Part shown: positions 12,775 through 46,636 of the stretch, one piece after another
How the letters are laid out: every line of letters starts with the position of its first letter
Numbering within the stretch: position 1 is the stretch's first letter
Assembly: GCA_003162425.1 (NCBI GenBank)
Contig: PMOK01000168.1
Location: 997 to 64,996, forward strand
Reading direction: 5' to 3'
Length of the DNA: 64,000 nt
DNA from: Bryobacterales bacterium
Lineage (GTDB): Bacteria; Acidobacteriota; Terriglobia; Bryobacterales; Bryobacteraceae
The notes under the pieces: model-generated
Told to the model about the DNA's origin: nothing
The model's database searches: none
The model's input: the letters and a program-made list of their open reading frames with translations, nothing else
Translations under genes and position numbers: made by a program

Positions 12775-12888
12775 TACCGGCCCCCACAGGTCACCGCCGA
12801 GCGGAACCAGGACGTCAATATGCCATATTCCGGGAACGTCGTTTTTCATTCTCAATCTGCCGACTGGGGTAAAATCGTTCGACACTCT

Positions 12889-15831: not shown

Positions 15832-18696
15832 TCACTTGGCCGCAGGCACTCGCCGCCGCAACTCATCGAAGAAGTTCACGAGGAACGTCAAATGCGTGAT
15901 CGGCGGCGGGTCCACCGTCCCATCCGCATTCAAAACCACGGCGGCGCGCTTGCCATCCGGCGCCAGGTCGTAGGCGAAACTCTTGACGGGGTGCGGGGAC
16001 CACACCTGGGGCTCGCCGAACACAAAGGCATCGCCCCTGGCCGTGTAGCCGGTAACCATAATGGTGCGGGAGGACTCGATGAAGAACAGCTCAAGCCCAT
16101 TGCGCGACCAGATGGGGGCGTCGCCGCGGCTCGAAATCAGCCACCCCCCGCCCGGGCCTGGGAAAGGCACCACCCACACCCCTTCTTTTGCAGGATCGTG
16201 CGAGTAGTATGCCAGCCAGCGGCCATCGGGCGAGAATGCCGGTGAGATCGTTGAAAATGGCGTCTGCAGGAATGGCTCTGGCTTTCCCAGCCGGGGATGG
16301 CCCGCCTCGCCGTCGATAGTCGCCGTCCAGATCTCTATTCCGCCAGCCGTGCTTAGCTGGATCATTGCCAGCCGTTTGCCGTCCGGAGAGATAGAGTGTG
16401 GCGACTGCTGAACCTTTCCATCCGTCAGCCGTTGCGCCACGCCCGAGCCATCGGCGCGGATCGAATAGATGCCCGGCGCTGCGGGATTCGAGGACCAAAA
16501 TACCAGTTTCATTCCGTCAGGTGTCCACACCGGGCTCTGGTTTTGGCCTAGTAGAAGCGTGAGGCGCGATGCAATGCCGCGCTCCAAGTCCCCCACCCAA
16601 AGGTCCTCATGGCTCCGGCCGTCGCTGGCGGTAAACGCCAGGCGCTTGCCGTCGGGGGAAAAGCGTGGAGAAGCATAAAGTCCCGGAGCCGGGTGCAGCG
16701 GCCGCGTCTTACCGGTGCTATCCAGCCAGAAGATCGCCTGCTGCAGTTCACCCGCCGAACTAGCGTAGACGAAGGTGCCGGTCTGGGAAAAGCCGAAATC
16801 CCCTCCCGTGCCCTCCCCGTTGTGGATGTCTTCGACTACAGGCTGGGGCTCTCCGGTCAGCGCTAACCGGTCAAGATCAAACGGCGCCGCATATAGCACG
16901 CTCTGATGGAGCCAAACCAAGTGCCCGCTGGGAAGGTAGCGGGCGAAGAAGCCGCCGTGGTGAAGGGTTTTCCGCTCTCCAGTCTTCAATGCAATAACAT
17001 CGATATCAGCGTCGTCAAAGGTCTGCCCTATGTGCTGGGTGGTGAAAAGAACCGCCCGGCTTCCCGGTAGGATCTGCGGCCAAGCGTGCCTCCGTTCACT
17101 CTTTTCGTGGTTTAGCTCGGTCACCGGCGCGGGCGCGCCGCCCGCGGAGGAAATACGCGAGAGGCCTGTCCCAAAACCCAGTGGCGCGATAATATTGCCA
17201 TCGTCGCCCCAGCTTGCTGTGATCCTGCCGGGAGCGTCACATAGTGTCACGGCGGCGCCACCGGTGGCGGATATTTTCTTGATCTTACGGTCGGAGTGGA
17301 ACGCGATCCATCGACCGTCCGGAGAAAAAACGGGGGAGGCCGCACCCTCTGTGCCGGTGAGGGGTGTAAACTGCCTCTGATCCAGCCGGCGCGTGGCCAG
17401 GCGGATCTTGCCGTCCGCGCCGCGAACAATCACAGCCAGCAGCGTTCCGTCCGGCGAGAGCGCCAGGAAGCTTCCCGATTCGGTTCTCTCCAGCTTAATA
17501 TCCGGCCCCATCTCGACGTTGAGACGCATCAGCGGATTTGGAGGCGCAGCTCGGCTGGCGCGCCACCAACCGATGGCAGCGGTGACCGCGAGCGCCACAG
17601 CAAGCACCGCAGCAGCCCAGGGCCGCAGTCGAGCTGCTGCTGGCAACGGCCGCACCTCCTGCTCGGGCGCGTCGATGGCGATGCGTGCTTCCCCGATGGC
17701 TTGCAATCTTTGCCTGCGATCGCGTTCCAGGCACCGCCATAGCAGCCTGCGAATCCTCGGCGGCGTTGCCGCCGGCAACGCACTCCAGTCCGGCTCCGCT
17801 CGCAGCACCGCTGCCAAAATTTCAGTGACCGATTCGCCTGAGAACGCACGGCGTCCCACCAACGTCTCGTACAGCACCGCGCCGAACGCCCAAATGTCCG
17901 TGCGTTTATCTACTCTCTTTCCGCTGGCTTGCTCCGGGCTCATGTACGCGACCGAGCCGAGGATGATGCCGCCATGCGTCAGCGATAGCGTCGCCGTTGG
18001 TGCATCGGAGGGATCGTTTGCGGCGGACGCCGCCTCGACCTCCTTCGCCAAACCGAAGTCGAGCACCTTGACTAGTCCCGCCGGCGTGACCATAATATTG
18101 GCCGGCTTCAAATCGCGATGGATGATCCCCTTTTCATGAGCCGCTTCCAGCGCTTCTGCAATCTGCCTGGCGTAGTTGAGGGCCGTTTCAATCGGCAGTG
18201 GGCCTGATTTTATCAGTGAATTGAGCGTTTCACCTTCCACCAGCTCCATCACCAGTGCTTGCGATTCCACTCCATAGATATGCCCAATGTTTGGATGATT
18301 GAGCGACGCCAGCAGCTTGGCTTCACGATTGAGACGGGCGAGTCTGTCGGGGTTCTGCGCGAGAGAGTCCGGCAAGACTTTGATCGCGACCTCGCGGCCG
18401 AGCTTCGTGTCCTTGGCCCGGTACACTACACCCATTCCACCCCTACCGAGCATGGCCACGATCTGGTAATGCCCCATCCGCGCCCCGGCGGGCAACTGAG
18501 TAAGGTTTGATTCGCCCAGCAGATCCCCGGCAGGTTGGTCGAGTAGCGCACCATCACTGGGTTGTGCCAGGAGCACTTCCACCTCAGCTCGGATGTCGGG
18601 ATCGGCCAGGGCCAGCAGCGCGGCGCGGTCGGCCGGCGAGCGCTCTATTGCTGAGTTGTATAGCTCCTCGATATGGCGCCAGCGCTCGGGGTCCAT
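15832..18696 (-). CDS. Ser/Thr protein kinase (N-terminal ERW helix, TM, PD40-like propeller)
   Basis: MDPERWRHIEELY.., [39 protein letters not shown]; TM AAAVLAVALAVTAAIGWW; FSPDG(R/K) repeats. Confidence 0.95.
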   Translation of the reverse strand: MDPERWRHIEELYNSAIERSPADRAALLALADPDIRAEVEVLLAQPSDGALLDQPAGDLLGESNLTQLPAGARMGHYQIVAMLGRGGMGVVYRAKDTKLGREVAIKVLPDSLAQNPDRLARLNREAKLLASLNHPNIGHIYGVESQALVMELVEGETLNSLIKSGPLPIETALNYARQIAEALEAAHEKGIIHRDLKPANIMVTPAGLVKVLDFGLAKEVEAASAANDPSDAPTATLSLTHGGIILGSVAYMSPEQASGKRVDKRTDIWAFGAVLYETLVGRRAFSGESVTEILAAVLRAEPDWSALPAATPPRIRRLLWRCLERDRRQRLQAIGEARIAIDAPEQEVRPLPAAARLRPWAAAVLAVALAVTAAIGWWRASRAAPPNPLMRLNVEMGPDIKLERTESGSFLALSPDGTLLAVIVRGADGKIRLATRRLDQRQFTPLTGTEGAASPVFSPDGRWIAFHSDRKIKKISATGGAAVTLCDAPGRITASWGDDGNIIAPLGFGTGLSRISSAGGAPAPVTELNHEKSERRHAWPQILPGSRAVLFTTQHIGQTFDDADIDVIALKTGERKTLHHGGFFARYLPSGHLVWLHQSVLYAAPFDLDRLALTGEPQPVVEDIHNGEGTGGDFGFSQTGTFVYASSAGELQQAIFWLDSTGKTRPLHPAPGLYASPRFSPDGKRLAFTASDGRSHEDLWVGDLERGIASRLTLLLGQNQSPVWTPDGMKLVFWSSNPAAPGIYSIRADGSGVAQRLTDGKVQQSPHSISPDGKRLAMIQLSTAGGIEIWTATIDGEAGHPRLGKPEPFLQTPFSTISPAFSPDGRWLAYYSHDPAKEGVWVVPFPGPGGGWLISSRGDAPIWSRNGLELFFIESSRTIMVTGYTARGDAFVFGEPQVWSPHPVKSFAYDLAPDGKRAAVVLNADGTVDPPPITHLTFLVNFFDELRRRVPAAK

Positions 18697-19404: not shown

Positions 19405-22218
19405 TTAATGGAACGCGCCGATGCGAACCTGTATGACACCGGAGTCTGGCTCCTCGGTGGATTGTAAGAAGTAGATCCTCAGGCCATCGCGGCTTACGGC
19501 TAATGGTCGCGAACCGCTGTCCATGCCGAGCGGTCCGGGTACTGAAAACAGCGGTACAGGAGTGGTGAAACGCAATTGAGTACCCACGCCGTCCACGCGA
19601 ACGGACCAGATTCGATCTTGATCAAAATATAAGATCTCTTTGCCATCCTTGCGCCATACGGCGAAATTGCCGCTATTCGCGATTTGCCTGCGAAGGCCGT
19701 GGCTCGTCAGCGGGTGCACGTAAATTCCAGATTCCGATTCAGCGTGGTAAACGGTCCATGCGCCGTCGGGAGACATCGCGGCGTTATCGACGCGCTGTTC
19801 CACAACCTGCTCCGGTCGACTCCCTCGATCGAGGGAAGCCGAAAGAAGGATAGCATCTTGTTTACGGAATTCACTGTAAAGGATTCGACGCCCATCCCCT
19901 GAAATGTCGTGCAACCAGAGCTGCACCCCTGAAGCAGGATGCTCCGGGTACATCCGAATCTCGGCGGAGCCAGTTATGGACAGCTTGACTATTTCTGCGC
20001 CTCTGACGCCAATCAGTCCCGAACCGTCAGGTGTCCAGACAATCGGTACAGCAGATCCTAGGCTGGTGCGGCCGGGTCCGTTGGATTCCATTACCCATGA
20101 GCCCACACTCGACGACACCAGTACGTGCGCTTCGTCAGGCGCTAGTCCGATGATTTCTGCGGGGACAGAAGCGCCAGCCGACCCTATTCGATTCCCCTTC
20201 CGGTCAAAAATCATCACTTGTGAAATGACCGCGGTTCCGCGACGCCACACAACGGTACCGGAGCGCGAGACGGAGAAGTATGCGTTGCGAGACGTGGCGT
20301 TGGATGCGACCCCCTCTTGAACGAGTTCGGGATCGCCAACTAAGTGACGGGCCTTCACATCAATCCTTTGCGGGTAGAGATTATCGTTTCGGACCCACAG
20401 AATGTGGCCGCCGCCGGCGCTCGTAAAGGCTGCGGCTGTATCGTTGCTGAACAACAACCGCGGATCGATAGCCTTCCCGCCCCGCATCGTCGCAATAAAC
20501 AGCTGGGCCTCAGCCGAGTCAGAAGGTGTGAACACAAATAGGAAATCTTCACCGCCCGGAAGGAACTCCGGGTTATAAAAACGACCCTCCTTGACCCCGG
20601 GCACCTCGACTGGAAATGCCCTTCCTCCGGTGGCGGGTACGCCGTACAAACCTATGTGAGCCGGAGAGGTTTGAATAATGGCGAAAAGGATAGTCCCTTT
20701 CTCGCTCCAGCTGCCCCCGCGGTAGGAGCCCTTAGAGGTCTCAGTGGTGATCAACTCCGTGGCGCCGTTGGGTATCTGCATTTTCATTAGACCACTGACA
20801 GTCGGGAATGCAATTGATTTAGAGTCGGGAGCCCAGAACGGATTGCCACCCCAAACAAAAGGAGGTAGCGAGTGATCTTGAAGCGAACCCAAGCTTCGTA
20901 TATGGAATCTGGCGTCGTTTGCACGATACACAACCGCTGATCCATCAGGTGAAATCCTTTCAACGCTGAGTCCACCGACGCGGACAAGATTCCTACCATT
21001 CGGTGGAACGATACTGAGCACTAATTCCGGCAAGGCGTTCGGAGCGGGAGGCTTTTCGCGGAAGTGCAGAAACGCCACCAATGCTAGGCACACTGCCAGT
21101 CCGGCAGCCACGCTCCAGGCTAGCCACAGGTGCCGAAACCCACCGGGCTCTGGTGCGCCTTCCGGGAGTGGCGTCTGACCATCACCGGAAACGCTCCATT
21201 CGAGGGCCCGCTTAAGATCGCGCGCAGTTTGAAAGCGGTCGGCCGGGTCCTTGGCGAGACATGCTCTCACCACCCGGTTCAACCCCTCCGGCTCCAGCTC
21301 CGGTGGTTCACGCTCCAAAATAGCTGCGATGATGCTGGCCGGACTGGCCCCCTCAAACGCACACTTACCAGTGATCATTTCGTAGAGCACCAGGCCGAAC
21401 GAGAAAATGTCGCTCCGCGCGTCCACCTCCTGCCCCTGCACCTGTTCCGGCGACATATATTGCACGGTGCCGATGATCGCTCCCGCTTCCGTCAGCGTGC
21501 TGATTGCTCGTGTCACCGTCCCCGAAGCGCCGACCTTCGCCACCCCAAAGTCGAGCACTTTCGCCCCCGCCTTCGTCAGCATGATGTTGCCAGGCTTCAG
21601 ATCGCGATGGATCACGCCGTGGCGATGAGCCGTTTCGAGCGCATCGGCTATGTGCACCGCGATCTGCAAAACCTGATCCAGCGGGAACGACCCTTTCTTT
21701 AGGCGGTCCGCCAGTGTTTGGCCCTCCAAGTACTCCATCACCAGGTAGTTAATTCCATTCTGGTGACCGACATCGTGGAGCGTGCAGATGTGCGGATGGT
21801 TCAGGCTGGAGATAGCTTTCGCCTCGCGCTCAAATCTCTCTCGGACTTGAGGTGTACTGGAAAGATGCTCGGGAAGAACTTTGATTGCGACGATTCGGTC
21901 CAGCCTGGTATCTTCGGCACGGTAGACCTCGCCCATGCCGCCCGCGCCCAACAGGGAAAGGATCTGATAAGCGCCGAGCTGCTGACCGATCATCGAGCCA
22001 ACGCGGTCCTGGGCTACCGCTTGGGCCAGCACTGCCATCCCAGGCGCATCCATGAACTTGTTTGCGGGTTCCTCGTGCGAGAGCAGCGATTCGATTTCCT
22101 GGCGAAGGGTCTCGTCGCCACGGCAGGCCTCTTCTAGGAACGTCGCACGTTGGCTCACTTCCCGCGCGAGCGCGAGGTGGTAGAGCCGCTCGATTTGCTG
22201 CCAGCGCTCAGGCGTCAT
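19405..22218 (-). CDS. Ser/Thr protein kinase (N-terminal ERW helix, TM, beta-propeller-like C-terminus)
   Basis: MTPERWQQIERLYH.., [39 protein letters not shown]; TM LWLAWSVAAGLAVCLALVAFL. Its start overlaps the end of the sigma gene. Confidence 0.95.
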   Translation of the reverse strand: MTPERWQQIERLYHLALAREVSQRATFLEEACRGDETLRQEIESLLSHEEPANKFMDAPGMAVLAQAVAQDRVGSMIGQQLGAYQILSLLGAGGMGEVYRAEDTRLDRIVAIKVLPEHLSSTPQVRERFEREAKAISSLNHPHICTLHDVGHQNGINYLVMEYLEGQTLADRLKKGSFPLDQVLQIAVHIADALETAHRHGVIHRDLKPGNIMLTKAGAKVLDFGVAKVGASGTVTRAISTLTEAGAIIGTVQYMSPEQVQGQEVDARSDIFSFGLVLYEMITGKCAFEGASPASIIAAILEREPPELEPEGLNRVVRACLAKDPADRFQTARDLKRALEWSVSGDGQTPLPEGAPEPGGFRHLWLAWSVAAGLAVCLALVAFLHFREKPPAPNALPELVLSIVPPNGRNLVRVGGLSVERISPDGSAVVYRANDARFHIRSLGSLQDHSLPPFVWGGNPFWAPDSKSIAFPTVSGLMKMQIPNGATELITTETSKGSYRGGSWSEKGTILFAIIQTSPAHIGLYGVPATGGRAFPVEVPGVKEGRFYNPEFLPGGEDFLFVFTPSDSAEAQLFIATMRGGKAIDPRLLFSNDTAAAFTSAGGGHILWVRNDNLYPQRIDVKARHLVGDPELVQEGVASNATSRNAYFSVSRSGTVVWRRGTAVISQVMIFDRKGNRIGSAGASVPAEIIGLAPDEAHVLVSSSVGSWVMESNGPGRTSLGSAVPIVWTPDGSGLIGVRGAEIVKLSITGSAEIRMYPEHPASGVQLWLHDISGDGRRILYSEFRKQDAILLSASLDRGSRPEQVVEQRVDNAAMSPDGAWTVYHAESESGIYVHPLTSHGLRRQIANSGNFAVWRKDGKEILYFDQDRIWSVRVDGVGTQLRFTTPVPLFSVPGPLGMDSGSRPLAVSRDGLRIYFLQSTEEPDSGVIQVRIGAFH

Positions 22219-22786
22219 GCGGCACTTCTCGGCTCAATTCCCGATGGAGCCACACCTTAGCCAGTTTCCAGTCGCGCAATACGGTATCTGGCGAGACTTT
22301 TAATACTTCCGCGGTTTCCTCGGCCGTGAGTCCGCCAAAGAAGCGTAGCTCAATGACTTGGCTCTTTCTAGGATCGATGGCGGCCAAGGCGTTCAGGGCA
22401 TCATCCAAAGCCACTAAGTCTGGATCTGTTCGCTGGAAAATATCAGGGCTTTTCTCCAACGATAGAGGGCGCACGCCCACGCCTCGCTTCAAGTAATTCC
22501 GGGAACGGGCGAAATCCACCAGGATGCGGCGCATTAGCTGCGCGGAGACAGCAAAAAAGTGAGCGCGGTTCTGCTACCGTACGCGGCTGCAATCCACCAG
22601 ACGCAAGTAGGCCTCGTTCACGAGTGCCGTAGTTTGCAGGGTATGCCCGGGGTTTTGGCCGGCCATGTAGTGGCGAGCCAACCGCTGAAGTTCCTTATGA
22701 ACCAACGGCATCAGTTCTTCCAGCGCCGAGGACTGGCCTTGGCTCCAGGCCAGAAGCAGCTCCGTAACCTGCTGTGGCAAAGGCAT
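22208..22786 (-). pseudogene. TIGR02999-type ECF sigma factor interrupted by one in-frame TAG
   Basis: Track ORFs 22574..22825 and 22208..22534 are in the same frame: ..[46 protein letters not shown]... The TAG (22574-22576) sits where this family has Trp in (V/E)WQNRAHFF, so TGG became TAG. Confidence 0.8.
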
Positions 22787-23552: not shown

Positions 23553-23768
23553 GATTGACATCTAAAACGATCCATCGCGGCTCTTCTGACTAGGCGACCG
23601 GGCGCTGCGTCCCTATGGGTCTGCGGATCAAAGGTCTTGCCTGGCCGGCCTAGCGTTTACCTATCGGGCAGCCGGGCCGTTTTCTGGGAATTGGCCTGAT
23701 AAACGCGCAACTCGTCCCATTTCCTGATCTGACGAAAATTGGTCAGCGGATTATGGAGACCGCTGACA

Positions 23769-24761
23769 ATGAAAAACAAGACTGTGAAACAGAAGCGCCC
23801 CTCTCCCAAAAGAGTGCTTCGCCTCCCCGACCTCGATTACGCGAAAACGGTCGTCCTGAACACACTCAGTTCCGCAGATTCGCGGCGATCCTATCGATTT
23901 GCCATTGACGATTTCGTCACATGGTACTGCTCGGAACCGAGGCTCGCTTTCAGTAAGACCGTTGTTCTCCGATACAGACTGGAACTGGAGGGCGGTCATT
24001 TGGCCCCGTCCACGATCAACCTGCGCCTCGCTGCGGTTCGCCGCCTCGCGTACGAAGCAGCCGACACCGGGCTCCTCAGCCCCGATTTGGCCGCTGGTAT
24101 TCGCCGGGTCAAAGGAGCAAAAAAGGTGGGCGTCCGACTCGGAAATTGGCTCACCGCAGATCAGGCCAAAGCGCTCCTGCGCGCCCCGGACATCGAAAAA
24201 GTTCGGGGGAAGCGCGACCGCGCAATGCTGGCGGTCTTGCTTGGTTGCGGATTGCGCCGGTCTGAAATTGTCCACCTGAGCGTCGATCATCTTCAGAAGA
24301 GGGAAGATCACTGGGCCATTGTTGACCTGATCGGGAAGGGCGGCCACATACGGACCGTTCCGGTTCCGGAATGGGTCAAAGCGTCGGTTGACGATTGGGT
24401 GACGGTAGCAAACATCGGCACAGGGAGACTGTTCCGTTGTGTTAACAAGACCGGCTCAGTCTGGGGCAGCGGGATCACAGAGAAAGTCGTGTGGAGTGTC
24501 GTGAAAGAGTTCGCCGCTACTGTAGGCATCGATAAGTTAGCCCCTCATGATCTTCGACGGACTTGCGCCCGGCTGTGCCATTCTGTTGGCGGAGAGCTTG
24601 AGCAGATTCAGTTTCTGCTCGGACATGTGAGTGTGCAGACCACTGAGCGTTACCTTGGCTGCAAACAGCGTCTGCGGGGAGCTGTGAACGATTGCATCGG
24701 AATCGAGCCTGAGATGCAAACGAAGCTGCAGATCGCTGGAACTGCCGTTAGTTCAGGCTGA
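23769..24761 (+). CDS. tyrosine recombinase / phage-type integrase
   Basis: RDRAMLAVLLGCGLRRSE (Arg I), HDLRRTCA (H-x-x-R), LLGHVSVQTTERY (catalytic Tyr). ATG 23769 is preferred over the TTG at 23739. A 7-bp stem TCAGCGG/CCGCTGA lies just upstream. Confidence 0.9.
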   Translation: MKNKTVKQKRPSPKRVLRLPDLDYAKTVVLNTLSSADSRRSYRFAIDDFVTWYCSEPRLAFSKTVVLRYRLELEGGHLAPSTINLRLAAVRRLAYEAADTGLLSPDLAAGIRRVKGAKKVGVRLGNWLTADQAKALLRAPDIEKVRGKRDRAMLAVLLGCGLRRSEIVHLSVDHLQKREDHWAIVDLIGKGGHIRTVPVPEWVKASVDDWVTVANIGTGRLFRCVNKTGSVWGSGITEKVVWSVVKEFAATVGIDKLAPHDLRRTCARLCHSVGGELEQIQFLLGHVSVQTTERYLGCKQRLRGAVNDCIGIEPEMQTKLQIAGTAVSSG

Positions 24762-26090: not shown

Positions 26091-26469
26091 GGGCGGACCG
26101 GTTCTCTACCGCGGGAAACAGGTCTACATCCAGGGTGAGCCGCTATTCGACATCGAGTATTCGGACCAACTTCTGATCCGCCTCCTAGAGGCCTTTAATC
26201 CAGAAAAGTATGGTCGACGCGTCGAGCAGATCAACCTGATGGACATCGATCCGGACAAGCTGACGCCAGCGCAGCTCGATAGGATCGCGGAGCACCTGAT
26301 CCAGAAGGCTTTAACTGGCAAACCTGAAGCTATGGTAGCCGAAGCACGGCGCCGGCTAGAAGCTGGGGAGACCGTAACAGTTGAGGCGCTGGCGGAGGAG
26401 ATGACGGAGGAGCCTGGGCACACTGGTGGTTCTCGAGAAGGGCAAGCGACCACCGGTGTGGTGCCATGA
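26089..26469 (+). pseudogene. 5'-truncated phage/ICE-type gene (terminase small-subunit-like), copy 1
   Basis: PVLYRGKQVYIQGEPLFDIEYSDQLLIRLLEAFNPEKYGRRVEQ... The pattern ..YSD.LLI.LL.A..PEKY.. recalls small-terminase/HTH proteins of prophages. The Met at 26089 is fortuitous, at the junction. Confidence 0.5.
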
Positions 26470-27219: not shown

Positions 27220-30200
27220 TCATCGCTTCGGCGAAGGCGCGTTTGCACCGGAGCCTCTCTTTTCAACATCCTGCGATTCGTCTAGGTACCGACTCAGTTT
27301 TGTCGCCAGAATTCCAACAGCGGGCTCAAAGAACACGCCTGTGTGGTCTCCCGGAATCTGGTGAACCTCCAGGCCGTCCTCTACTAGTTCACGCCAGCCC
27401 AATTGGATTTGCCAATAAGCGCCTGAGGGACGCCAGGAGGACTGGAACAGCACGACGCGGGCGGGGTAGCGGTGAGGTCGATAGGCACTGGCTGCAGAGT
27501 ACAGGATCTGATCTGCGTCCTGCGATCCGCTTTTGCTTAGGGGAGTCCCAACGTCGCTGGACAAGTGGTGAACCAGCCGCTTGCCCCGGCCGATGAGAGC
27601 ACGCAATCGGGACTTCAAATGGGTGAGAACCTTACTCACTCCGTCTTGGCGCAGATTTGTGATATGGAACGCGACTCTCTCGAGCCCCACTCTCATTCGA
27701 GCCATGACCGAGAGCTTCCAGAAATACGACCAATTCCGAGTGTCGATCAAGGCCAGGAGAGCCACCTGCTGCCCGCCACAAATGAGCTGTCTGGCCGTTT
27801 CGTACGCCAGGAGTCCGCTGAGGCACCAGCCTCCTAAATAGTACGGACCCTCGGGCTGCACTTCGCGCACTGCTCTCACCACACAAGCGGCGATATCTTC
27901 CAGCGTAGAGGGGACCGGCCCGTGCATTGAATCTAAGCCGCGAAGATCGATACCCAAGAGCGGCTGGTCAGAACCTAAGCGATCCGCGAGAGGCAGAAAA
28001 GCGGGGCCGCCTCCCAGGCAGAACAAGGGTGGCCGGGAACCAGCGGGCTGAATTGGAATCACTCGAAGAAGCTGGGCCGCGGAGTCCCCGGTTCGCATCG
28101 CGGTCGCCAGTTTTTCCACCGTGGGTGCCTGGAAGATGGTAGCCATCGACAGTTTCTGTCCGAAATCTCGTTCCAAGCGAGCAAGCATTTTTGCCACCAG
28201 CAGGGAATGGCCGCCCAGCTCGAAGAAATTATCCTGGGGCCCAACGCGGCTCACGCCGAGGAGCGTTCCCCAGATTTTCCCCAGCTGAAACTCCAAGGCA
28301 TCCACCGGAACCAAATCCTCGACTGAAGTGAAATCGTCTCGCTGGGGAGCTGGCAGTGCGCGGCGGTCAATCTTTCCGTTCGGCAATAGCGGTAACGATT
28401 TTAGAATCACGAACTGGGACGGCAGCATGAACTCCGGCAGCTTCCGTTCGAGGAAGCTTCGCAGCCCCTCGTGCATAACCGCTTTTCCTGGATGAGGCAC
28501 GATGTACGCCACCAACCGCTTCTCCTGCTGGTTGTCCTCCCAGGCGGACGCGGCAACGGCCAGGACCGAGGGGTGCGCCGCCAGCATCGCCTCGATCTCA
28601 CCCAGTTCGATCCGATAGCCGCGAATCTTCACCTGGAAGTCTTTTCTTCCCAGGAACTCGATGCTGCCGTTGGCGAGCCGCCGTCCCATGTCTCCGGTTC
28701 GATAGATCCTCTTGTTTCCGCCCTGCGGGTCCGGGAGAAAGGCCGCCCTGGTCAATTCCGGTTTCTGCCAATAACCGAGGGCGAGATGCGCGCTTCGGAT
28801 ACCGATCTCTCCATATAGGTCGGTTGGTTGGGCGGATTCATCCAGCAGCAGAACCTCCGTTTCCTCGACCGGATAGCCGACCGGCACCGACGCCCGGTCA
28901 ATCGGTGTTTCCTGATCGATAAAATACTGCAGCGTTACGGTTGATTCAGTTGGTCCGAATCCGTTGACAAACAGGCAGCCTTCGGAAAAATGCTTCCGGT
29001 ACAGATCCACATCCCTTTTGTCGGCGGCTTCTCCTCCCAAGACAATCAAACGAACGCTGGAGAAATCCTCCCCACCCCGCAAGGAACCCGCAAAATAGCG
29101 ATATATGGTCGGGGTGGAATGATAGATAGTAATCCGCTGGGCCGACAACCAGCCGGGCAGACTGCCGATTCCCTCGGCCCTCAGGTCGATTGGACATAGC
29201 CCCGCTCCATTGAGTAATGCGCCGAAGACGTCCATTACAGCCGCGTCAAAGCAGTAGGAGGAAATCAAGCTCAGCCGGTCGCTGGCGTCGATGTGCAGTG
29301 CGTTGGTGTAGCTGCTGATAAAGTGAAGCACATTCCGATGATTCTGCGCGACGCCTTTGGGCCGCCCGGTGGAACCGGAGGTGTAAAGAATGTACGCTGC
29401 CGCGTCCGGGGAAATGGAGAGCCCAAGGTCGTGTTCGGGAATGGAGGTCTGCTTCTGATCGACGTTCAGTACAGGAGTCTTTTTGTTTGACAGTTCATTG
29501 GCTAGAGACAGATTGGCCGCATTGGTCAGGATTGCGGCCGCCTGGCAATCATCCAAGACGTAGGAGATCCTCTCCCGCGGATAATGTGGGTCAATCGGAA
29601 CGTAGGTCTTACCCGCGTTCAGCACGCCCAGCATGCCGGCAATCATGGGAGCGTCCTGCTCAAACAGCAGAGCAATGTTCTCTGGTGCTGGCCCGCGCAA
29701 ATCCAAGAGAGCGCGTGCGACCTGGTTGGCTTTCCGTTTGAGAATCTCGTAGGTCCACTCACACCGTCTGGAGCGGACGGCAACGCGATCCGGATGCCGC
29801 CTCGCTTGCTGCTCGAAGCGCTGGAATATGGACTGCTCAATCTGGTCCCGTTCGAATCGCACAAAGGAGCTGTGGGGACAGACTGCATTGCGGCGGGTGG
29901 AAAGCTGCCGCCGCTCATCGCCGGAGAGGAGGGGCAAGGTCGAAATCGGCCGGTCCGGGTAGTCCACGATCCCGTGGAGCAACCTCTCCAGGTGCTCACG
30001 CATACGATCGATGGTCGCCGCTTCAAACAGGTCGGTGTTGTAGCGGAAGCGGCCGACCAAGCCTTCCGGCCGGTCGTCCAATGCGAGGTAGAGATCGGTT
30101 CTCGCCATGCCCGTATCGACGTCGATCTGCGTCAGTTGCCAGCCGGGCGAAAGATCCGGGAGCTGAGGCTCGAGAACGAACATCGCTTGAAACAGCGGGT

Positions 30201-31365
30201 GGCGGCCGGGGTCCCGTTCGGTTCCGAGTTCCTGCACCAGGCGATACACCGGAACATCGCCATGCGATAAAGCGCCTAACGTCACTTCTCGAACGCGCCG
30301 GACCAGTTCCCGGAATGTCGGGTTCGCCGAAAGGTCGGTGCGCAGCACCAAGGTGTTCAGAAAGAAACCCAGGAGACTTTCTACTTGCGGCCGTTTTCGG
30401 ATGGAATTGACCGTGGCGACGACGATGTCGGTTTGCCCGGTGTAGCGATAGAGCAAGGCCTGAAAGGCAGCCAGCAGTGTCATGAAGAGCGTGACGCCTT
30501 CGCGTTGGCTGAGCGCCTTCAAGGCTTCGGTCAAGCTCCCTGAAAAAGCGAAAGTCGGTTGCGCGCCGCGGAAACTGAGTAGCGGGGGACGGGGTCGGTC
30601 CACCGGCAACTCCAATGTCGCAGGCGCACCGGACAGTTGTTGCTTCCAGTAAGCGAGTTCCTCGGAAGCATCGTCTGGGAAAACCTCGCGTTGCCAATGA
30701 ACAAAGTCAGCGTAGCGGATGGGCAACTCGGGAAGCGACGGCGGTTTTCCGGTGGAACAGGCTTCGTACAAGCTGGCCAGCTCCGGGAGGAATACATTGT
30801 TGAGGGAGATGCCATCGAAGATGATGTGATGCAGGGTGAAGAATAAGCGGTGTTGCTCGTCCTCGAAGCGCACCAGCATGGCTCTGAGTAGCGGCCCCCG
30901 TTCCAGATCGAAAGGCCGACGCGAGTCTTCCGTAGCCAGCCTCAGAGCTTCTGCTTCTCGCTTGACCTCAGGAAGCCCGCGCAGGTCGACCACAGGCAGG
31001 TCGAGCGGGAACGGAGGCTGGACGATCTGGACCGGCTGCCCGTGCAAGCAGTGGAACGTGGTTCGCCAAGCCTCGTGCCGGCGAATGATCGCACTCAAGC
31101 TCTGCTCCAACGCCTTGACATCCAGCGGACCAGAGCGGTGTATGGTGACTGGCTCGTTGTAAATGGGGAGACCGGGGTCCATTTGAGCGTGCAGCCATAT
31201 TTGCTGTTGTCCATAGGAAAGTGGAGCGACGGGACCGGCTGGGCCGCGGGAAATCGGAGGCAGGCCGGCAGGTCTTGGCGGCAGATCTCCGCGGAGATAT
31301 TTTTGGAGCAGGAGGCGCTTCGAATCTGAAAGATGGGCCGCTTCAGCCATGGAACGCGGCACCAC
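27220..31365 (-). CDS. NRPS module C-A-T-TE
   Basis: C: HHIIFDGIS. A: LYTSGSTGRPKGV, FDAAVMD, NGFGPTE, YRTGDMGR, GRKDFQVKIRGYRIELGEIE, LPNGKIDRRAL. T: FFELGGHSLL. TE: GGWCLSG..LIDT..PGDH. An alternative ATG at 31350 gives ATGgcTGA overlap with the P450 stop. Confidence 0.95.
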   Translation of the reverse strand: MVPRSMAEAAHLSDSKRLLLQKYLRGDLPPRPAGLPPISRGPAGPVAPLSYGQQQIWLHAQMDPGLPIYNEPVTIHRSGPLDVKALEQSLSAIIRRHEAWRTTFHCLHGQPVQIVQPPFPLDLPVVDLRGLPEVKREAEALRLATEDSRRPFDLERGPLLRAMLVRFEDEQHRLFFTLHHIIFDGISLNNVFLPELASLYEACSTGKPPSLPELPIRYADFVHWQREVFPDDASEELAYWKQQLSGAPATLELPVDRPRPPLLSFRGAQPTFAFSGSLTEALKALSQREGVTLFMTLLAAFQALLYRYTGQTDIVVATVNSIRKRPQVESLLGFFLNTLVLRTDLSANPTFRELVRRVREVTLGALSHGDVPVYRLVQELGTERDPGRHPLFQAMFVLEPQLPDLSPGWQLTQIDVDTGMARTDLYLALDDRPEGLVGRFRYNTDLFEAATIDRMREHLERLLHGIVDYPDRPISTLPLLSGDERRQLSTRRNAVCPHSSFVRFERDQIEQSIFQRFEQQARRHPDRVAVRSRRCEWTYEILKRKANQVARALLDLRGPAPENIALLFEQDAPMIAGMLGVLNAGKTYVPIDPHYPRERISYVLDDCQAAAILTNAANLSLANELSNKKTPVLNVDQKQTSIPEHDLGLSISPDAAAYILYTSGSTGRPKGVAQNHRNVLHFISSYTNALHIDASDRLSLISSYCFDAAVMDVFGALLNGAGLCPIDLRAEGIGSLPGWLSAQRITIYHSTPTIYRYFAGSLRGGEDFSSVRLIVLGGEAADKRDVDLYRKHFSEGCLFVNGFGPTESTVTLQYFIDQETPIDRASVPVGYPVEETEVLLLDESAQPTDLYGEIGIRSAHLALGYWQKPELTRAAFLPDPQGGNKRIYRTGDMGRRLANGSIEFLGRKDFQVKIRGYRIELGEIEAMLAAHPSVLAVAASAWEDNQQEKRLVAYIVPHPGKAVMHEGLRSFLERKLPEFMLPSQFVILKSLPLLPNGKIDRRALPAPQRDDFTSVEDLVPVDALEFQLGKIWGTLLGVSRVGPQDNFFELGGHSLLVAKMLARLERDFGQKLSMATIFQAPTVEKLATAMRTGDSAAQLLRVIPIQPAGSRPPLFCLGGGPAFLPLADRLGSDQPLLGIDLRGLDSMHGPVPSTLEDIAACVVRAVREVQPEGPYYLGGWCLSGLLAYETARQLICGGQQVALLALIDTRNWSYFWKLSVMARMRVGLERVAFHITNLRQDGVSKVLTHLKSRLRALIGRGKRLVHHLSSDVGTPLSKSGSQDADQILYSAASAYRPHRYPARVVLFQSSWRPSGAYWQIQLGWRELVEDGLEVHQIPGDHTGVFFEPAVGILATKLSRYLDESQDVEKRGSGANAPSPKR

Positions 31366-32629
31366 GCGCAGCCGATTCAGGGTCTGCTATCCGGACGGGC
31401 AGGGCTGTCAAGCCGCGCAATCCCAGGTTTTGCCGCCAAACCAGAGGCCCGGGTTCCAGAGTAAGATTCGGAAGCCGGCGCAGCAACGTTTCGAAAGCAA
31501 TTTGAGCTTCCATGCGAGCCAAGGGAGCGCCGAAGCAAAAATGAGCGGCCCAACCGAATGCCACGTGCCGGTTGTCCACGCGCGTGATGTCGAGCCGGTC
31601 CGGGTCGGCAAATCGCTCCGGATCGCGATTGGCGGCGCCCATCACGGCAATCACGGCCTGGCGCTTGCGGATCAGTTTTCCGCCCAGTTCCACGTCGGCC
31701 GGCGCCATGCGGGTGGTGTGCTGGCTGGGGGTCTCATAGCGCAGCAGCTCTTCGATCGCGGAAGGAATCCAGGAGAGGTCAGCCCGCAGTGTTTCCAATT
31801 GATCGGGGTTGCGCAGCAAGCTGAGCATGCCGTTTCCAATCAGGTTGGTTGTGGTTTCCTGGCCCCCCACCATGGTCACGATACAATTGGCGATCACCTC
31901 TTCTTCGCTCAACCGGTCGCCTCCGATCTCGGCCGTACTCAGCGCATGGATGAGGCCCTCCCGCGGATGGTCGCGCTGTTCGCGGATGGCCGCGCGAAAA
32001 TAGGCGGTCATTTCCTCGACGCTTTTCAGTACGCGCGGAATGCGGTCCGGGTTGTATTGGAAGTTTCCGAGCATCTCAGCGAAATCCGCGGACCAGGCTT
32101 TGAGTTGAAGATGGTCGGCAACCGGCACACCCAGCATTCCGGCCGTGACGATGGCGGGCAACGGGCTGGCAAAGTCTCGCAGCAAATCCATACTGCTCCC
32201 GGCCGCGACCGCATCCAGCAGGCTATCGGCGATCTCCTGGATGTGAGAACGCAACATGGCCACCCGGCGGGGCGTGAAGGCCGCGGAGGCGAGGGCGCGC
32301 AGCCGAGTATGTGCCGGCGCGTCCATGAAAAGCATCTGGCTCACCATCATTTGAGCGATGGGGTTCAACGCCGCGAGTCCGATCGCCGTCAGATGCTCGG
32401 GCGTGGGTGTTACATCGGCGGAGAAGTCGTGCAGCACTTGGATCACGTCACAATAACGGGTGACCACCCAGGCGTGCAGGAAGATATCCCAATGCACCGG
32501 GTCCTCGGTCCGGAGTCGGTGATAAAGAGGATAGGGGTTGGCAAGAACCTCAGGGTCGAGCAGATGGTAGAGGCTCAAAGAAGGACCGGGCTGGGTGCCT
32601 TGGTGGGCGGGAACTGCGCTTGTCGTCAC
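31343..32629 (-). CDS. cytochrome P450
   Basis: I-helix MVGGQETTTN, ExxR EELLRYETP, heme loop FGWAAHFCFGAPLAR. Its start lies 4 nt after the A-T gene stop. Confidence 0.95.
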   Translation of the reverse strand: MTTSAVPAHQGTQPGPSLSLYHLLDPEVLANPYPLYHRLRTEDPVHWDIFLHAWVVTRYCDVIQVLHDFSADVTPTPEHLTAIGLAALNPIAQMMVSQMLFMDAPAHTRLRALASAAFTPRRVAMLRSHIQEIADSLLDAVAAGSSMDLLRDFASPLPAIVTAGMLGVPVADHLQLKAWSADFAEMLGNFQYNPDRIPRVLKSVEEMTAYFRAAIREQRDHPREGLIHALSTAEIGGDRLSEEEVIANCIVTMVGGQETTTNLIGNGMLSLLRNPDQLETLRADLSWIPSAIEELLRYETPSQHTTRMAPADVELGGKLIRKRQAVIAVMGAANRDPERFADPDRLDITRVDNRHVAFGWAAHFCFGAPLARMEAQIAFETLLRRLPNLTLEPGPLVWRQNLGLRGLTALPVRIADPESAARGAAFHG

Positions 32630-32632
32630 GTG

Positions 32633-34558
32633 TCATTCTCTCTCTGCTAAAGCGTTCAGGGCCTCTTCTTCGCTCATGGCTTCCAGCCCGGCGATCATCA
32701 ACCGTTCGATCAAGGCGGACATGGCGCTCACAGTCGGATGCTCGAACAGGTTGCGCAAAGAAAGTTCCACTCCGAAGACACTGCGTACTCGCGCGATCAC
32801 TTGTGCCCCAAGCAACGAGTGGCCGCCCATTTGGAAAAAGTTGTCCTCAACGCCCACTTGTTCCAGATTCAGCAGACTCTTCAGGATTCCCGACAAGTGC
32901 TGTTCCACCGCCGTGCGAGGAGCGACGAAGATCGGCGCGCTCTCGGGATCCGGAGCCGGTAGTGCGGCGAGATCCAATTTACCGTTCGGGGTGAGCGGAA
33001 GAGCGGGAAGAAACACAAAGAACGCCGGCAGCATGTAATCGGGCAGTTTCGTTTTAAGGAACTCCCGAAGAAGCTGGCAGGAGGGCTGGGAGTCCGGAGC
33101 CGTTACAACATACGCGATGAGTTGCTGGTCACCCGGTGTGTCTTCGCGCGCCACGACCAGGCTCGATTCGATCATCGGGTGAATATTCAGCAAAGCCGAG
33201 ATTTCGTCTGGTTCGATACGGTAGCCCCGGATCTTGATCTGCCGATCCGCTCGCCCCAGAAAAGCGACCTGGCCATCCGGCAAAAACCGCCCCAGGTCGC
33301 CGGTTCGATACATGCGGGCGCCCGGTGTTGCGCTGAACGGATCAGGAATGAATCTTTCCGCGGTAAGCTCTGGGTCATTCCGATATCCGCGCGCCAGGCT
33401 CGCCCCGCCGATGTACAGTTCGCCAGCTTGGCCGGGCGCGACCGGTTGTTGATGGTTGTCCAGAACGTATACTTCGGTGTTGGCGATGGGCCAACCAATT
33501 GGTGGCAGCGCGTCGCAACATTCTTCCGGCTTCAAGGCGCCGGAGGTCGCCACCACCGTGCATTCGGTAGGTCCGTAATTGTTCACTACCTCGAACGGCA
33601 GGCCGGGCGGCGGATAGCGGTGGAGCCGATCGCCACCAGTGAGCATCGCGCGCAACGCCGTGCCGCGTGGCCATTCCAGCCTCATCACGCGCTCGGCCAT
33701 AGGCGTGGGAACAAAGCTGATCGTGATCTCTTGGGCCACTAGCCAGTCCCGCAGAAGCTCCGGGGATTGGCGCGTTTCGTCATCGGCAAGATGGACGCTG
33801 GCTCCAGCGGTCAGGTATGGCCACAACTCCCAGACCGCCGCGTCGAAGCTCAGACCGGCGATCTGGCTGGCGCGGTCGGCTGATGTCACTTGGAAGGCAT
33901 GCTGGTGCCACGACACCAGGTTGGACAGGCTGGCATGTGTGATCTCGACTCCTTTCGGGGAGCCAGTGGAGCCGGAGGTGTAAATCACGTAAGCCAGTTG
34001 TTGAGTCAGAGCTTCATCGACCGGAGAGCTCGCATCCTGGCGCGCAATGCTTCGACTTCCGGCGTCCAGTTCCACTACCTGGCAGCCGCCGGAGGGAAAG
34101 CGCTGAGCCAAGTCCGCATCTGTCACCAGTACCGGAGCGTGGGCATCACGCAACATGAAGGCTAAGCGGTCCGACGGATAAGCAGGGTCCAATGGAAGAT
34201 AGGCGGCGCCAGCCTTTAGGATGCCTAAGGCGGCAACCGGCAGTCCGATGGAACGGTGCAAGCAGAGGCCAACGACCACCTCCGGCCCGACACCGAGCAT
34301 GCATAGTCGGTCGGCCACCTGGTCGGACCGAACCTCAAGCTCCCCATAGCTCAACGCCTCTCCGTTTGCGACTAGCGCGACCTGCTCAGGCCGGGCGGCC
34401 GCGTGAGCCGCCACGAGCTGAGGCACACAAGCACCCGTTTGGTTTCCGAGTGACACCCGGTTGCCGTCGTTCGTAGACACCGAACTGCAGGGAACGGCTA
34501 GGCCCCGAAACATAGCTTGCTGCTGGTTGAACCGGTATTGTAACCCGAGACCCGGCAA
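32633..34558 (-). CDS. NRPS loading didomain A-T (predicted Leu)
   Basis: IYTSGSTGSPKGV, FDAAVWE, NNYGPTE, YRTGDLGR, GRADRQIKIRGYRIEPDEI, TPNGKLD, FFQMGGHSLL. Stachelhaus residues read by alignment to GrsA give DAWFLGNVVK. ATG at 34513 is a likelier start than the TTG at 34558. Confidence 0.95.
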   Translation of the reverse strand: MPGLGLQYRFNQQQAMFRGLAVPCSSVSTNDGNRVSLGNQTGACVPQLVAAHAAARPEQVALVANGEALSYGELEVRSDQVADRLCMLGVGPEVVVGLCLHRSIGLPVAALGILKAGAAYLPLDPAYPSDRLAFMLRDAHAPVLVTDADLAQRFPSGGCQVVELDAGSRSIARQDASSPVDEALTQQLAYVIYTSGSTGSPKGVEITHASLSNLVSWHQHAFQVTSADRASQIAGLSFDAAVWELWPYLTAGASVHLADDETRQSPELLRDWLVAQEITISFVPTPMAERVMRLEWPRGTALRAMLTGGDRLHRYPPPGLPFEVVNNYGPTECTVVATSGALKPEECCDALPPIGWPIANTEVYVLDNHQQPVAPGQAGELYIGGASLARGYRNDPELTAERFIPDPFSATPGARMYRTGDLGRFLPDGQVAFLGRADRQIKIRGYRIEPDEISALLNIHPMIESSLVVAREDTPGDQQLIAYVVTAPDSQPSCQLLREFLKTKLPDYMLPAFFVFLPALPLTPNGKLDLAALPAPDPESAPIFVAPRTAVEQHLSGILKSLLNLEQVGVEDNFFQMGGHSLLGAQVIARVRSVFGVELSLRNLFEHPTVSAMSALIERLMIAGLEAMSEEEALNALAERE

Positions 34559-35037: not shown

Positions 35038-35502
35038 CGATCCGGTCAACCCGACTGGCTGCGAAAAGACGCAACGTACCCCGCGCGATTTGCTCAAGCA
35101 CGAGAGCGAGCTACCCAGACCCTTGAAGACGAGGCTGTTCGTCGGGCTGTGGAGGGAGTCCGCAGACCGGTTCTCTACCGCGGGAAACAGGTCTACATCC
35201 AGGGTAAGCCGCTATTTGACATCGAGTATTCGGACCAACTTCTGATCCGCCTACTAGAGGCCTTTAATCCTGAAAAGTATGGTCGACGCGTCGAGCAGAT
35301 CAACCTGATGGATATCGATCCGGATAAGCTCACGCCCGAAGTACTCGATAAACTGGCTGATCATCTGATTCAGAAGGCGCTGAAAGAGAAGGGGTTGAAT
35401 AGCCCCGAGATGGTAGCTGAAGTCGGCCGCCGTCTGGAGGCCGGGGAGACCGTGACCGTTGAGGCGCTGGCGCAGGAGCAGACGGATGAGCCTGGGAAAT
35501 GA
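35038..35502 (+). pseudogene. 5'-truncated terminase small-subunit-like gene, copy 2 (longer than copy 1)
   Basis: The frame is open from 35038 with no start: ..ARFAQARERATQTLEDEAVRRAVEGVRRPVLYRGKQVYIQGKPLFDIEYSDQLLIRLLEAFNPEKYGRR... The track ORF starts at GTG 35149. Confidence 0.55.
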
Positions 35503-37566: not shown

Positions 37567-37845
37567 TCATTTCCCCGGCTCCTGCTCCACCGCACGCATG
37601 CAATCCTCGAACGTCGGGTTCTCGCCAGCTTCGATGAGCCGCTGCGCTTCTGCGACGGCTCGCTGATTTCCGCCTAAGGCCCTGCTGAGCAAGTGGTCTG
37701 CGATGACGTCGAGTTGGTCCGGCGTCATCTTGTCCGGATCGGTCTCCCACAGCAAGGCGCTGCGATCGACGAACATGCCGATCTCTTTCCCGATCAGCTC
37801 CTCACAGCGCGCCGCGGCCCCAACCCATTCGATTCGGCGCTCCAA
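37567..37845 (-). CDS. third, diverged and inverted paralogue of the terminase-like C-terminal module
   Basis: DPDKMTPDQLDVIADHLLSRALGGNQRAVAEAQRLIEAGE parallels DPDKLTPAQLDRIAEHLIQKALTGKPEAMVAEARRRLEAGE of copy 1. The N-terminus differs; TTG start. Confidence 0.45.
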   Translation of the reverse strand: MERRIEWVGAAARCEELIGKEIGMFVDRSALLWETDPDKMTPDQLDVIADHLLSRALGGNQRAVAEAQRLIEAGENPTFEDCMRAVEQEPGK

Positions 37846-45373: not shown

Positions 45374-46636
45374 ATGCGACTCAATTTGCAACGAAGACAC
45401 TCAGAACGGTGCGCTGGCGGCCATCCAGCTTACTCGCGCTCCTACGAATCCGACGAACGAAGGCGTGCGTGCAAGCAATGCTTTTGCCCGATCTACGCCG
45501 GTGGAACGCTTAGTGGGGTCTTTCGTCGGAAGAACACAGAGTGCAACGACTGGGAAGAAGCGCGGATTGTCGCGGATACTTGGGAGCGGACTGGTTCCTG
45601 GAACGGCGAACTAGTTCCGGTCGCGGCTGCAAAGCTGGAGCAGCACCAATCCGAAGGCGCTCACCCAAAGATTACAATCCAGTTCGCGACTGATGCGTAT
45701 CTTTCAAACCGGGCTGGACGCGAGATCAAGCAATCCACCTACAAGAAATACAAAACCTTCGTCAAGCAGCTTCGTGATTTTGCAGACACCAAAGGCTACG
45801 TGATGATGGAGCAGTTGCAACAGATCACGGACATGGACGAATTCTACGCCCGGTGGAAGGACGGAGTCCGGGCCAAAGGTAAAAAGCTGGAGCGGCTGAA
45901 TGGCTTTTTTAATTTCTGTGTAAAGCGCAAATGGATCTTAGAGAACCCCGCCCAACATCTTGAACCACCGGTCGGCGCTGGTTCGGCGGCAAATAAAACG
46001 CCGTTCACCGATGCCGAAATCCAGGCGATGTATGCTGCGTCCAGAAAGCTCGGGATCGTTAAGTGGAAGAGCGGAGCCCGTGAGGGCGAATGGTCCGGCG
46101 AAGAGGTCGTGACCTTCATGATGTTGGAGATTTACACCGGCCTTCGCATCGGAGACGCAGGCTCGTTCGATATGGACCGGCTAAAAGGCAATGAGTGTTT
46201 TCTTCAAATGCACAAGACAGACAAGCCGCTCTTCACTTGGCTGCCGGATGAACTAATCCATCGCTTATGGGAATTAGCGGAACAACGTGGCGCACGTCCG
46301 TTCATGACACCGGGGGGATCGACACGAATGGAAACCGTCGCTGATCTTTGGCGACGCAAACTGAACAAGGTTTGGGCGCTGTGTGGGAAGTGGGAAGAGC
46401 GGCCACACCCCCACCGTTTCCGACATACATTCGTCCGCATCCTGCTTCAGAATGGGGTGTCTCCGGCTGACGTAGCGGAACTGATTGGCGACACGGAAGA
46501 GATGGTTCGGAAGCATTACGCTCGATGGGTCCCAGAGCGGCAAGAACGGCTCACGCGCATTCTCCAGCAAGCTTTAACGGCCAAGGTCGCCCCTCCGAGG
46601 CTTGTATCAATCGCAGGGAAACGTGGACGACCGTGA
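45374..46636 (+). CDS. tyrosine integrase
   Basis: YTGLRIGDA, HRFRHTFV, LIGDTEEMVRKHY. It ends 63 nt from the 3' end of tRNA-Ser. Confidence 0.9.
   Translation: MRLNLQRRHSERCAGGHPAYSRSYESDERRRACKQCFCPIYAGGTLSGVFRRKNTECNDWEEARIVADTWERTGSWNGELVPVAAAKLEQHQSEGAHPKITIQFATDAYLSNRAGREIKQSTYKKYKTFVKQLRDFADTKGYVMMEQLQQITDMDEFYARWKDGVRAKGKKLERLNGFFNFCVKRKWILENPAQHLEPPVGAGSAANKTPFTDAEIQAMYAASRKLGIVKWKSGAREGEWSGEEVVTFMMLEIYTGLRIGDAGSFDMDRLKGNECFLQMHKTDKPLFTWLPDELIHRLWELAEQRGARPFMTPGGSTRMETVADLWRRKLNKVWALCGKWEERPHPHRFRHTFVRILLQNGVSPADVAELIGDTEEMVRKHYARWVPERQERLTRILQQALTAKVAPPRLVSIAGKRGRP

Follow-up and report, generated by a model that had tools for sequence, protein, structure and literature searches.

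The 64,000-nucleotide window analysed here (the whole stretch taken from contig PMOK01000168.1 of Bryobacterales bacterium, assembly GCA_003162425.1, positions 997 to 64,996) contains three adjoining genes on the reverse strand, the last of which encodes a nonribosomal peptide synthetase (NRPS) consisting of condensation, adenylation, carrier and thioesterase domains (C-A-T-TE). The thioesterase (TE), in which cysteine replaces the nucleophilic serine, is the main subject of this work. From its sequence and its predicted structure it appears to be a cysteine thioesterase (Cys-TE) of the type represented by AB3403 and BulbE, rather than by the ring-forming enzymes ObiF and SulM. The genes, domains and catalytic residues are as follows.

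32633..34513 (−), stand-alone A-T didomain protein of 626 aa (Pfam AMP-binding and PP-binding; ATG at 34511–34513; 626-aa gene call in locus L001)
31343..32629 (−), cytochrome P450 of 428 aa with the heme-ligand motif FGWAAHFCFG (Pfam p450)
27220..31350 (−), NRPS gene, C-A-T-TE; likely start ATG at 31348–31350, product of 1376 aa
29902..31227 (−), condensation domain (Pfam Condensation, 347 bits, aa 47–488)
30811–30831 (−), C-domain motif HHIIFDG, intact (HHxxxDG), read on the sequence
28372..29817 (−), adenylation domain of the terminal module (Pfam AMP-binding, aa 517–866 and 923–998), specificity code DAMHVGGVTK
28102..28281 (−), peptidyl carrier (T) domain of the NRPS (Pfam PP-binding, aa 1029–1088)
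28198–28215 (−), phosphopantetheine serine of this T domain, in GGHSLL (by motif position)
27223..28068 (−), thioesterase domain, type I alpha/beta-hydrolase with a Cys nucleophile, NRPS aa ~1100–1381 (Pfam, AlphaFold2 model, match to AB3403)
27814..27834 (−), nucleophile elbow GGWCLSG, aa 1178–1184 (alignment to solved TEs and model)
27823–27825 (−), Cys1181, codon TGC, read on the sequence
27742..27744 (−), Asp1208 in LALIDT, codon GAC, at "position I" directly after beta6 (sequence and model)
27343..27345 (−), His1341 in PGDH, codon CAC (aligned to PGDHSS of AB3403)

The open reading frame (ORF) 27220..31365 (−) is translated without interruption into 1381 aa, and the start at 31348–31350 agrees with the 1376-aa gene call in loci L003 and L004. 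The P450 gene starts 3 nt after the A-T stop codon, while between the P450 stop and the NRPS ATG there is an overlap of 8 nt; the three genes are predicted to form one translationally coupled operon with the TE at its end. No Pfam or NCBIfam match was found in any of the nine flanking ORFs tested, and none of them is conserved in related loci, so the cluster in the window consists of three genes only. The promoter and terminator scan gave no signal above the shuffled expectation.

The C-A-T part of the NRPS is matched best by LgrA module 2, and an epimerisation domain was not detected in the protein by Pfam. The TE belongs to PF00975 (65.3 bits against a cut-off of 26.4, aa 1117–1342) and lies directly C-terminal to the PP-binding domain. 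A preliminary description of this DNA had placed a TE at 27223–28060 with Cys instead of Ser in GGWCLSG; these coordinates proved exactly right, as did the conservation of Asp (LALIDT) and His (PGDH, 27343–27345), which was confirmed by sequence, alignment and model for Asp1208 and His1341. In phmmer alignments to Protein Data Bank (PDB) chains Cys1181 falls on the catalytic Ser of the skyllamycin TE (7crn, GWSLGS) and of the NocB TE (6ojc, GGWSFGG), and the same column holds the catalytic Ser in Pks13 and EntF. In AB3403 (4zxh: GGWCFGG ... IDTR ... PGDH) it is occupied by Cys.

The AlphaFold2 model of the TE was built with 38 homologues (mean predicted local distance difference test score 90.3, predicted template modelling score 0.86). 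In domain numbering, Cys1181 lies between strand 80–85 and helix 87–101, that is, at the nucleophile elbow for which the preliminary description had named structure prediction as a check. Asp1208 follows directly after strand 106–112, 27 residues beyond Cys1181, and His1341 comes after strand 237–242. The domain thus corresponds in the model to the type I TE fold, with a profile score above threshold, the nucleophile at the elbow, the acid after beta6 and the His after the last strand, and the Cys-Asp-His triad is predicted to be complete and of canonical geometry. Ser1183, two residues after the Cys, was considered as an alternative nucleophile and rejected: it takes the place of the second Gly of GxSxG, where homologues vary (N, S, Y, D or G), and both alignments and model put Cys1181 at the elbow.

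Two kinds of Cys-TE could be distinguished by the position of the catalytic Asp. In ObiF and SulM this residue has moved to the loop after beta7, as in RifR, and both enzymes group with type II TEs (PMC6668435, PMC11298585). The canonical site of ObiF, 27 residues after Cys1146, is occupied by Gly1173 (PMC6668435), and SulM possesses a Gln-Cys-Asn motif and a basic pocket (PMC11298585). AB3403, on the other hand, has been singled out as a Cys-TE retaining the canonical Asp (PMC11298585), and the TE of the bulbiferamide NRPS from Microbulbifer, BulbE-TE, has the triad Cys961/Asp988/His1097 with the Asp after beta6 (PMC11536411).

The window TE shares with ObiF the Cys nucleophile, the single C-A-T-TE module and presumably a very small substrate (PMC6668435), and with SulM the Cys nucleophile. 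It differs from both in that its Asp stands at position I and not after beta7, and in lacking any grouping with type II TEs. After beta7 (strand aa 1304–1309) it reads SWRPSG, and no acidic residue occurs before Glu1326 according to model and sequence. Its nucleophile motif is Trp-Cys-Leu, as opposed to Gln-Cys-Asn in SulM, and it has neither the Gly of ObiF at position I nor the basic pocket of SulM.

Similarity searches gave the same picture. Among solved structures AB3403 gave the best profile match (E=2.6e-75, spanning the carrier and the entire TE); it also came first in Foldseek and was one of the three best distinct sequences in a TE-only phmmer search of PDB. Type I TEs made up the Foldseek top 50 (AB3403, Sky-TE, Pks13, NocB, Vlm2, EntF). 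ObiF1 (6n8e) and SulM (8w2d) were not found in this top 50, nor in the TE-only phmmer search against PDB at E<0.01; their matches in the profile search lie mostly in the carrier domain. Alignment with the Pfam Thioesterase model and with the TEs of ObiF and SulM had been suggested in the preliminary description; the former was obtained at the score given above, and the latter two enzymes are absent at the E-value stated. No threonine transaldolase or sulfotransferase was found in the window by Pfam/NCBIfam.

Like the window protein, AB3403 (ABBFA_003403 of Acinetobacter baumannii, 4zxh/4zxi) is a stand-alone C-A-T-TE, of 1320 aa versus 1376–1381 aa, and its TE has the same set of features: GGWCFGG with Cys, Asp in IDTR after beta6 and the PGDH His. 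The two TEs are about 23% identical in the structural alignment, and AB3403 is proteobacterial. BulbE-TE, which was compared by its published description, has the same Cys/Asp spacing (+27) and Asp after beta6. It differs from the window TE in serving a multimodular line and in closing a 15-atom indolylamide macrocycle in a ureido-peptide, whereas the window substrate would be a dipeptide. Because of the Asp 27 residues after the Cys, the SWRPSG sequence after beta7 and AB3403 as the best match, the window TE could be assigned to the AB3403/BulbE type. Membership in the ObiF/SulM type was rejected on the position of the Asp and the similarity ranks.

What Cys could mean for such an enzyme is known from BulbE-TE. 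Release there, by a poor N-nucleophile, depends on the Cys; in the Cys-to-Ser mutant macrocyclisation is lost and hydrolysis increases (PMC11536411). The authors argue, with supporting data, that, compared with oxoesters, thioesters are activated more strongly for aminolysis but no more for hydrolysis (PMC11536411). In all three characterised Cys-TEs (ObiF, SulM and BulbE) Ser is no substitute for Cys in the native non-hydrolytic reaction (PMC11536411).

According to the literature, Cys-for-Ser TEs are "less common" and point to a release step that is chemically difficult (PMC11298585, PMC6668435, PMC11536411); a literature search for GXCXG or Cys-TE surveys yielded no more than reviews and the papers on ObiF, SulM and BulbE. 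Of the 120 database homologues closest to the window TE, 103 had Cys. When 1.84 billion cluster representatives were searched exhaustively with HMMER, 33,320 matched at E<=1e-3 and 707 at E<=1e-30; the best 150 representatives (50% clusters) comprised 100 with Cys and 48 with Ser. A scan of GTDB species genomes, with a pattern covering the motif upstream of the nucleophile and hence free of selection on the nucleophile residue, found 39 TEs with Cys and 42 with Ser. The nucleophile state follows the clades of a neighbour-joining tree of 90 TE domains, with 7 parsimony changes between Cys and Ser, and the window TE falls inside a clade of 16 members, every one of which has Cys (16/16), so that its presence there is not due to chance.

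Judging by these sequences, Cys would be the normal state in the large family of this TE; it is evidently real, inherited and maintained, and marks a large lineage rather than a rare event. Since Cys forms the majority among the relatives, this residue alone is no signal of a strained ring. In this TE sequence space, mainly of Acidobacteriota and cyanobacteria, the residue on its own is a poor predictor of beta-lactones or beta-lactams, and the position of the catalytic Asp must be checked besides the Cys before a beta-lactone is called.

Two or more TE-like domains, arranged in tandem or in separate modules and in all Cys/Ser combinations, were carried by 30 of the same 150 nearest representatives. 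A few TE-like copies in this set, in which G, D, A or N replaces the nucleophile, are presumably inactive.

The substrates of the two A domains were approached through the ten Stachelhaus positions, taken by alignment to the GrsA positions. The GrsA reference sequence was checked: DAWTIAAICK was recovered, and canonical Leu, Ser and Gly codes were returned in related loci. The stand-alone A-T has the code DAWFLGNVVK, a canonical Leu code. The code of the terminal A domain, DAMHVGGVTK, differs from the Ser and Thr codes, and its nearest counterpart is presumably the Glu-type code DAWHFGGVDK, which agrees at 7 of 10 positions.

An oxygenase beside the NRPS, called a neighbouring hydroxylase in the preliminary description, is confirmed as a P450 (Pfam p450). 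The best solved relatives of this enzyme are of CYP107 type: BioI (3ejb), which acts on acyl-ACP (acyl carrier protein), PikC and PksS. A stand-alone A-T adjoining a P450 is also known from aminoacyl-carrier-protein hydroxylase cassettes (NikP1/NikQ, and PlyR as proposed for 3-hydroxyleucine), and loading of Leu is a feature in common with the latter (PMC3943440). PlyR was proposed, by homology to NikQ, as a P450 for carrier-bound amino acids including Leu (PMC3943440). The window differs from these cassettes in its CYP107-like P450, in having no dedicated hydrolase for the modified amino acid and in a C domain placed for its direct use.

The same arrangement recurs in 13 loci, in which a P450 with 62–74% identity to that of the window stands next to an NRPS ending in a TE of the window's clade. 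They come from Acidobacteriota (Bryobacterales, Terriglobales, Acidobacteriaceae), one Chloroflexia metagenome-assembled genome (MAG) and one Alphaproteobacteria MAG. Twelve of these 13 loci have Cys in the terminal TE. The A-T/P450 adjacency is preserved in the 10 related loci whose upstream gene lies within the DNA examined; the A-T code, readable in nine, equals DAWFLGNVVK in five of these and departs from it at one or two positions in the other four. The terminal A codes vary across the loci: DSA[TC]IAEVWK (His-like), DVWHFSLVDK (Ser), DILQLGMIWK (Gly) and VDWVISL-AK (beta-Ala-like).

The conserved core would therefore consist of the Leu A-T, the P450 and the Cys-TE, while the TE-bound C-terminal residue appears variable and often without a beta-hydroxyl. 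A conserved core with a variable C-terminus indicates the Leu part as the target of the P450, either on the carrier or after release. By the same reasoning a C-terminal beta-hydroxyl could not be a shared feature of these pathways, which is hard to reconcile with a C-terminal beta-lactone.

Several related loci are organised differently in detail. The terminal A domain of the window (28372–29817) is not orthologous to those of the related loci, which are closer to the Leu A-T than to it; this suggests an A-domain replacement in the window lineage. In an uncultured Acidobacteriota MAG (MFD03346.bin.2.94, locus L009, 10901–17959) a sulfotransferase follows directly after the Cys-TE NRPS. Beyond it lie a luciferase-like monooxygenase, an acyl-AMP ligase, a formyltransferase, a methyltransferase and a GDSL hydrolase, and a glyoxalase-fold protein and an unknown 415-aa protein are located between P450 and NRPS. 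This locus looks like a more elaborate version of the pathway. Its sulfotransferase recalls the logic of sulfazecin, but the code of its terminal A domain resembles that for His, not that for diaminopropionate. In L007, L013 and L084 an A-T-TE protein with a Ser nucleophile and the code DIEDIGTVIK is inserted. L007 further has, between P450 and Cys-TE module, a 468-aa protein of unknown type and a glycosyltransferase of the GT4 family, and its terminal module is divided over two proteins, C-A and T-TE.

It is moderately probable that the three genes encode an orphan dipeptide line for Leu-X or oxidised Leu-X, in which a Cys-Asp-His TE of the AB3403/BulbE kind performs non-hydrolytic release through a thioester acyl-enzyme. 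Most of the weight of this statement is carried by the classification of the TE; the specific release chemistry is much less certain. The minimal assembly line would have two carriers: A-T(Leu), C-A-T(X) and then the TE. L-leucine would be loaded by the stand-alone A-T, and the P450 could oxidise the Leu part, most parsimoniously as Leu-S-T and possibly in the released product. The C domain would join Leu to X, the presumed residue chosen by the A domain with the code DAMHVGGVTK, on the NRPS's own carrier.

Subsequent transfer of the Leu-X chain to Cys1181 could proceed by energy-neutral transthioesterification. The thioester acyl-enzyme would then be resolved mainly by a nucleophile other than water. 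Since thioesters are more reactive towards amines and not towards water (PMC11536411), an intramolecular nitrogen nucleophile is the most likely one, probably the free amine of Leu, leading to a diketopiperazine-type ring. A hydroxyl installed by the P450 could serve as a second candidate, less likely than the amine. Formation of a C-terminal beta-lactone is not expected.

Several points weigh against this reading. Dipeptidyl thioesters can form diketopiperazines unaided, and a dedicated Cys-TE is not strictly needed for such a product. In the TE clade of the window no product or enzyme has been characterised, and DAMHVGGVTK allows no confident substrate assignment. No NCBIfam model reaches its cut-off for the P450, which shows only generic CYP107-like similarity, and OxyD, P450sky and NikQ are not among its top 60 PDB matches. 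In one syntenic locus (L072) the terminal TE has Ser, hence the cassette does not require Cys. Finally, the product and the TE reaction of AB3403 are themselves uncharacterised (PMC11298585).

The main rival, which we consider unlikely, is that Cys is a neutral functional stand-in for Ser and the TE hydrolyses its substrate to a linear Leu-X or hydroxy-Leu-X dipeptide. Cys and Ser codons are one nucleotide apart (TGC to AGC or TCC), the ~7 switches among 90 related TEs and a Cys:Ser ratio of roughly 1:1 to 2:1 among relatives are in its favour, and so is L072 with its Ser. Thioester and oxoester intermediates also hydrolyse similarly (PMC11536411). However, the strong clade coherence of the nucleophile, with 16/16 Cys around the window, favours selection over drift, and Ser cannot replace Cys in the native non-hydrolytic reactions of ObiF, SulM and BulbE (PMC11536411).

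A speculative and improbable alternative is that the TE works iteratively as an oligomerising cyclase, like EntF or serrawettin SwrW. The P450-derived hydroxyl of Leu would esterify two or three Leu-X units to give a macrocyclic depsipeptide. A single C-A-T-TE fed by a separate carrier follows the logic of EntF, which is among the PDB relatives of the TE, and the hydroxyl donor could be supplied by the conserved P450. No direct evidence of oligomerisation was found, however, and the TE domains of known oligomerising NRPSs use Ser, which weighs against it.

Still less probable, indeed very unlikely, is an ObiF/SulM-like cyclase for which the P450 beta-hydroxylates the TE-bound C-terminal residue, giving an N-acyl-alpha-amino-beta-lactone. 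It would explain the Cys nucleophile in a C-A-T-TE architecture common to the window and ObiF (PMC6668435) and the oxygenase adjoining the NRPS, and the substrate of the terminal A domain could still be a residue open to beta-hydroxylation. The Asp at position I, with SWRPSG after beta7, nevertheless contrasts with ObiF and SulM, and Trp-Cys-Leu with the Gln-Cys-Asn of SulM; neither enzyme appears in the TE-only PDB matches or the top 50 fold matches. Some relatives load a Gly or beta-Ala-like C-terminus and keep both Cys and P450, although neither residue can form a beta-lactone. What is conserved together with the P450 is the Leu A-T, the supplier of the N-terminal residue, and the window lacks the threonine transaldolase and sulfotransferase searched for. 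The ObiF/SulM-like four-membered-ring product of beta-lactone type that had been proposed at first is thus not upheld, given the canonical Asp, the sequence after beta7, the failure to retrieve ObiF and SulM, the frequency of Cys in relatives and the variable terminal residue.

That the Cys codon arose by a sequencing or assembly error, or belongs to a pseudogene decaying on a mobile island, has a practically negligible probability in spite of the integrase genes around the operon and the direct repeat bracketing it, since six contigs, each from a different assembly or run, share the same 63 nt around the Cys1181 codon, the 4.1-kb ORF is unbroken and retains every core motif, and the orthologues keep the Cys. 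The six assemblies or runs thereby rule out the sequencing error that the preliminary description had named as a possible source of the Cys, and the other objection foreseen there, a Ser two residues later at the elbow, falls with the second-Gly position of Ser1183.

Beyond the assignment of a release type to this Leu-X line, it could be proposed, tentatively and with some doubt, that the all-Cys TE clade and the conserved Leu A-T/P450 pair define an uncharacterised family of small natural products of oxidised Leu-X type with unusual, non-hydrolytic and thioester-dependent release. If this is true, a ring would, for example, be closed via the Leu amine or the P450-installed hydroxyl to six or seven members, and a new reaction type would be added for AB3403-like Cys-TEs. 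The three-gene Leu-X cassette of 7.3 kb, recurrent in three phyla, is small enough for direct synthesis and expression. Work on it could be a practical way to learn which reaction AB3403-type Cys-TEs catalyse, and to reach a product class of rarely cultured soil and peat Acidobacteriota.

The operon is bracketed by two copies of a direct repeat, located by repeat search and tblastn.

26093..26418 (+), direct repeat copy 1, ~0.33 kb, with a ~120-aa ORF
35162..35496 (+), direct repeat copy 2, ~0.33 kb, with a ~120-aa ORF

The copies are 83–90% identical and lie about 9.07 kb apart, and a third, diverged copy is inverted at 37675–37752. No family match was found for the ~120-aa ORFs. The bracketing repeat suggests that the operon was inserted, or could be mobilised as a cassette. 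The wider region is flanked by three phage-integrase-family ORFs and a tRNA-Ser(CGA) gene (23739–24761 (+), 45374–46636 (+), 46700–46789 (−) and 46844–47488 (−)), and because of these flanks it may represent a genomic island of ~23 kb. A search for att-like repeats found no second copy in the window of any stretch of >=14 nt from the tRNA-Ser region.

Five Ser/Thr protein kinase genes are located within the 64 kb (7430–10093, 12820–15546, 15832–18696, 19405–22218 and 51404–52729); two of the products have a PD40/WD40 beta-propeller tail and one a TPR tail. Ser/Thr kinases with PD40 and TPR domains are typical of Acidobacteriota. An ECF (extracytoplasmic function) sigma factor fragment at 22208–22534 adjoins one of the kinase genes; the L001 gene calls divide the sigma factor between two ORFs. 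A Y2-transposase/Trans_reg_C fusion ORF (1075–1935) is situated at the left end of the window, and a 204-aa ORF at 49934–50548, which combines fragments of the beta-lactamase family and of XFP_N (phosphoketolase N-terminal), is probably what remains of a gene.

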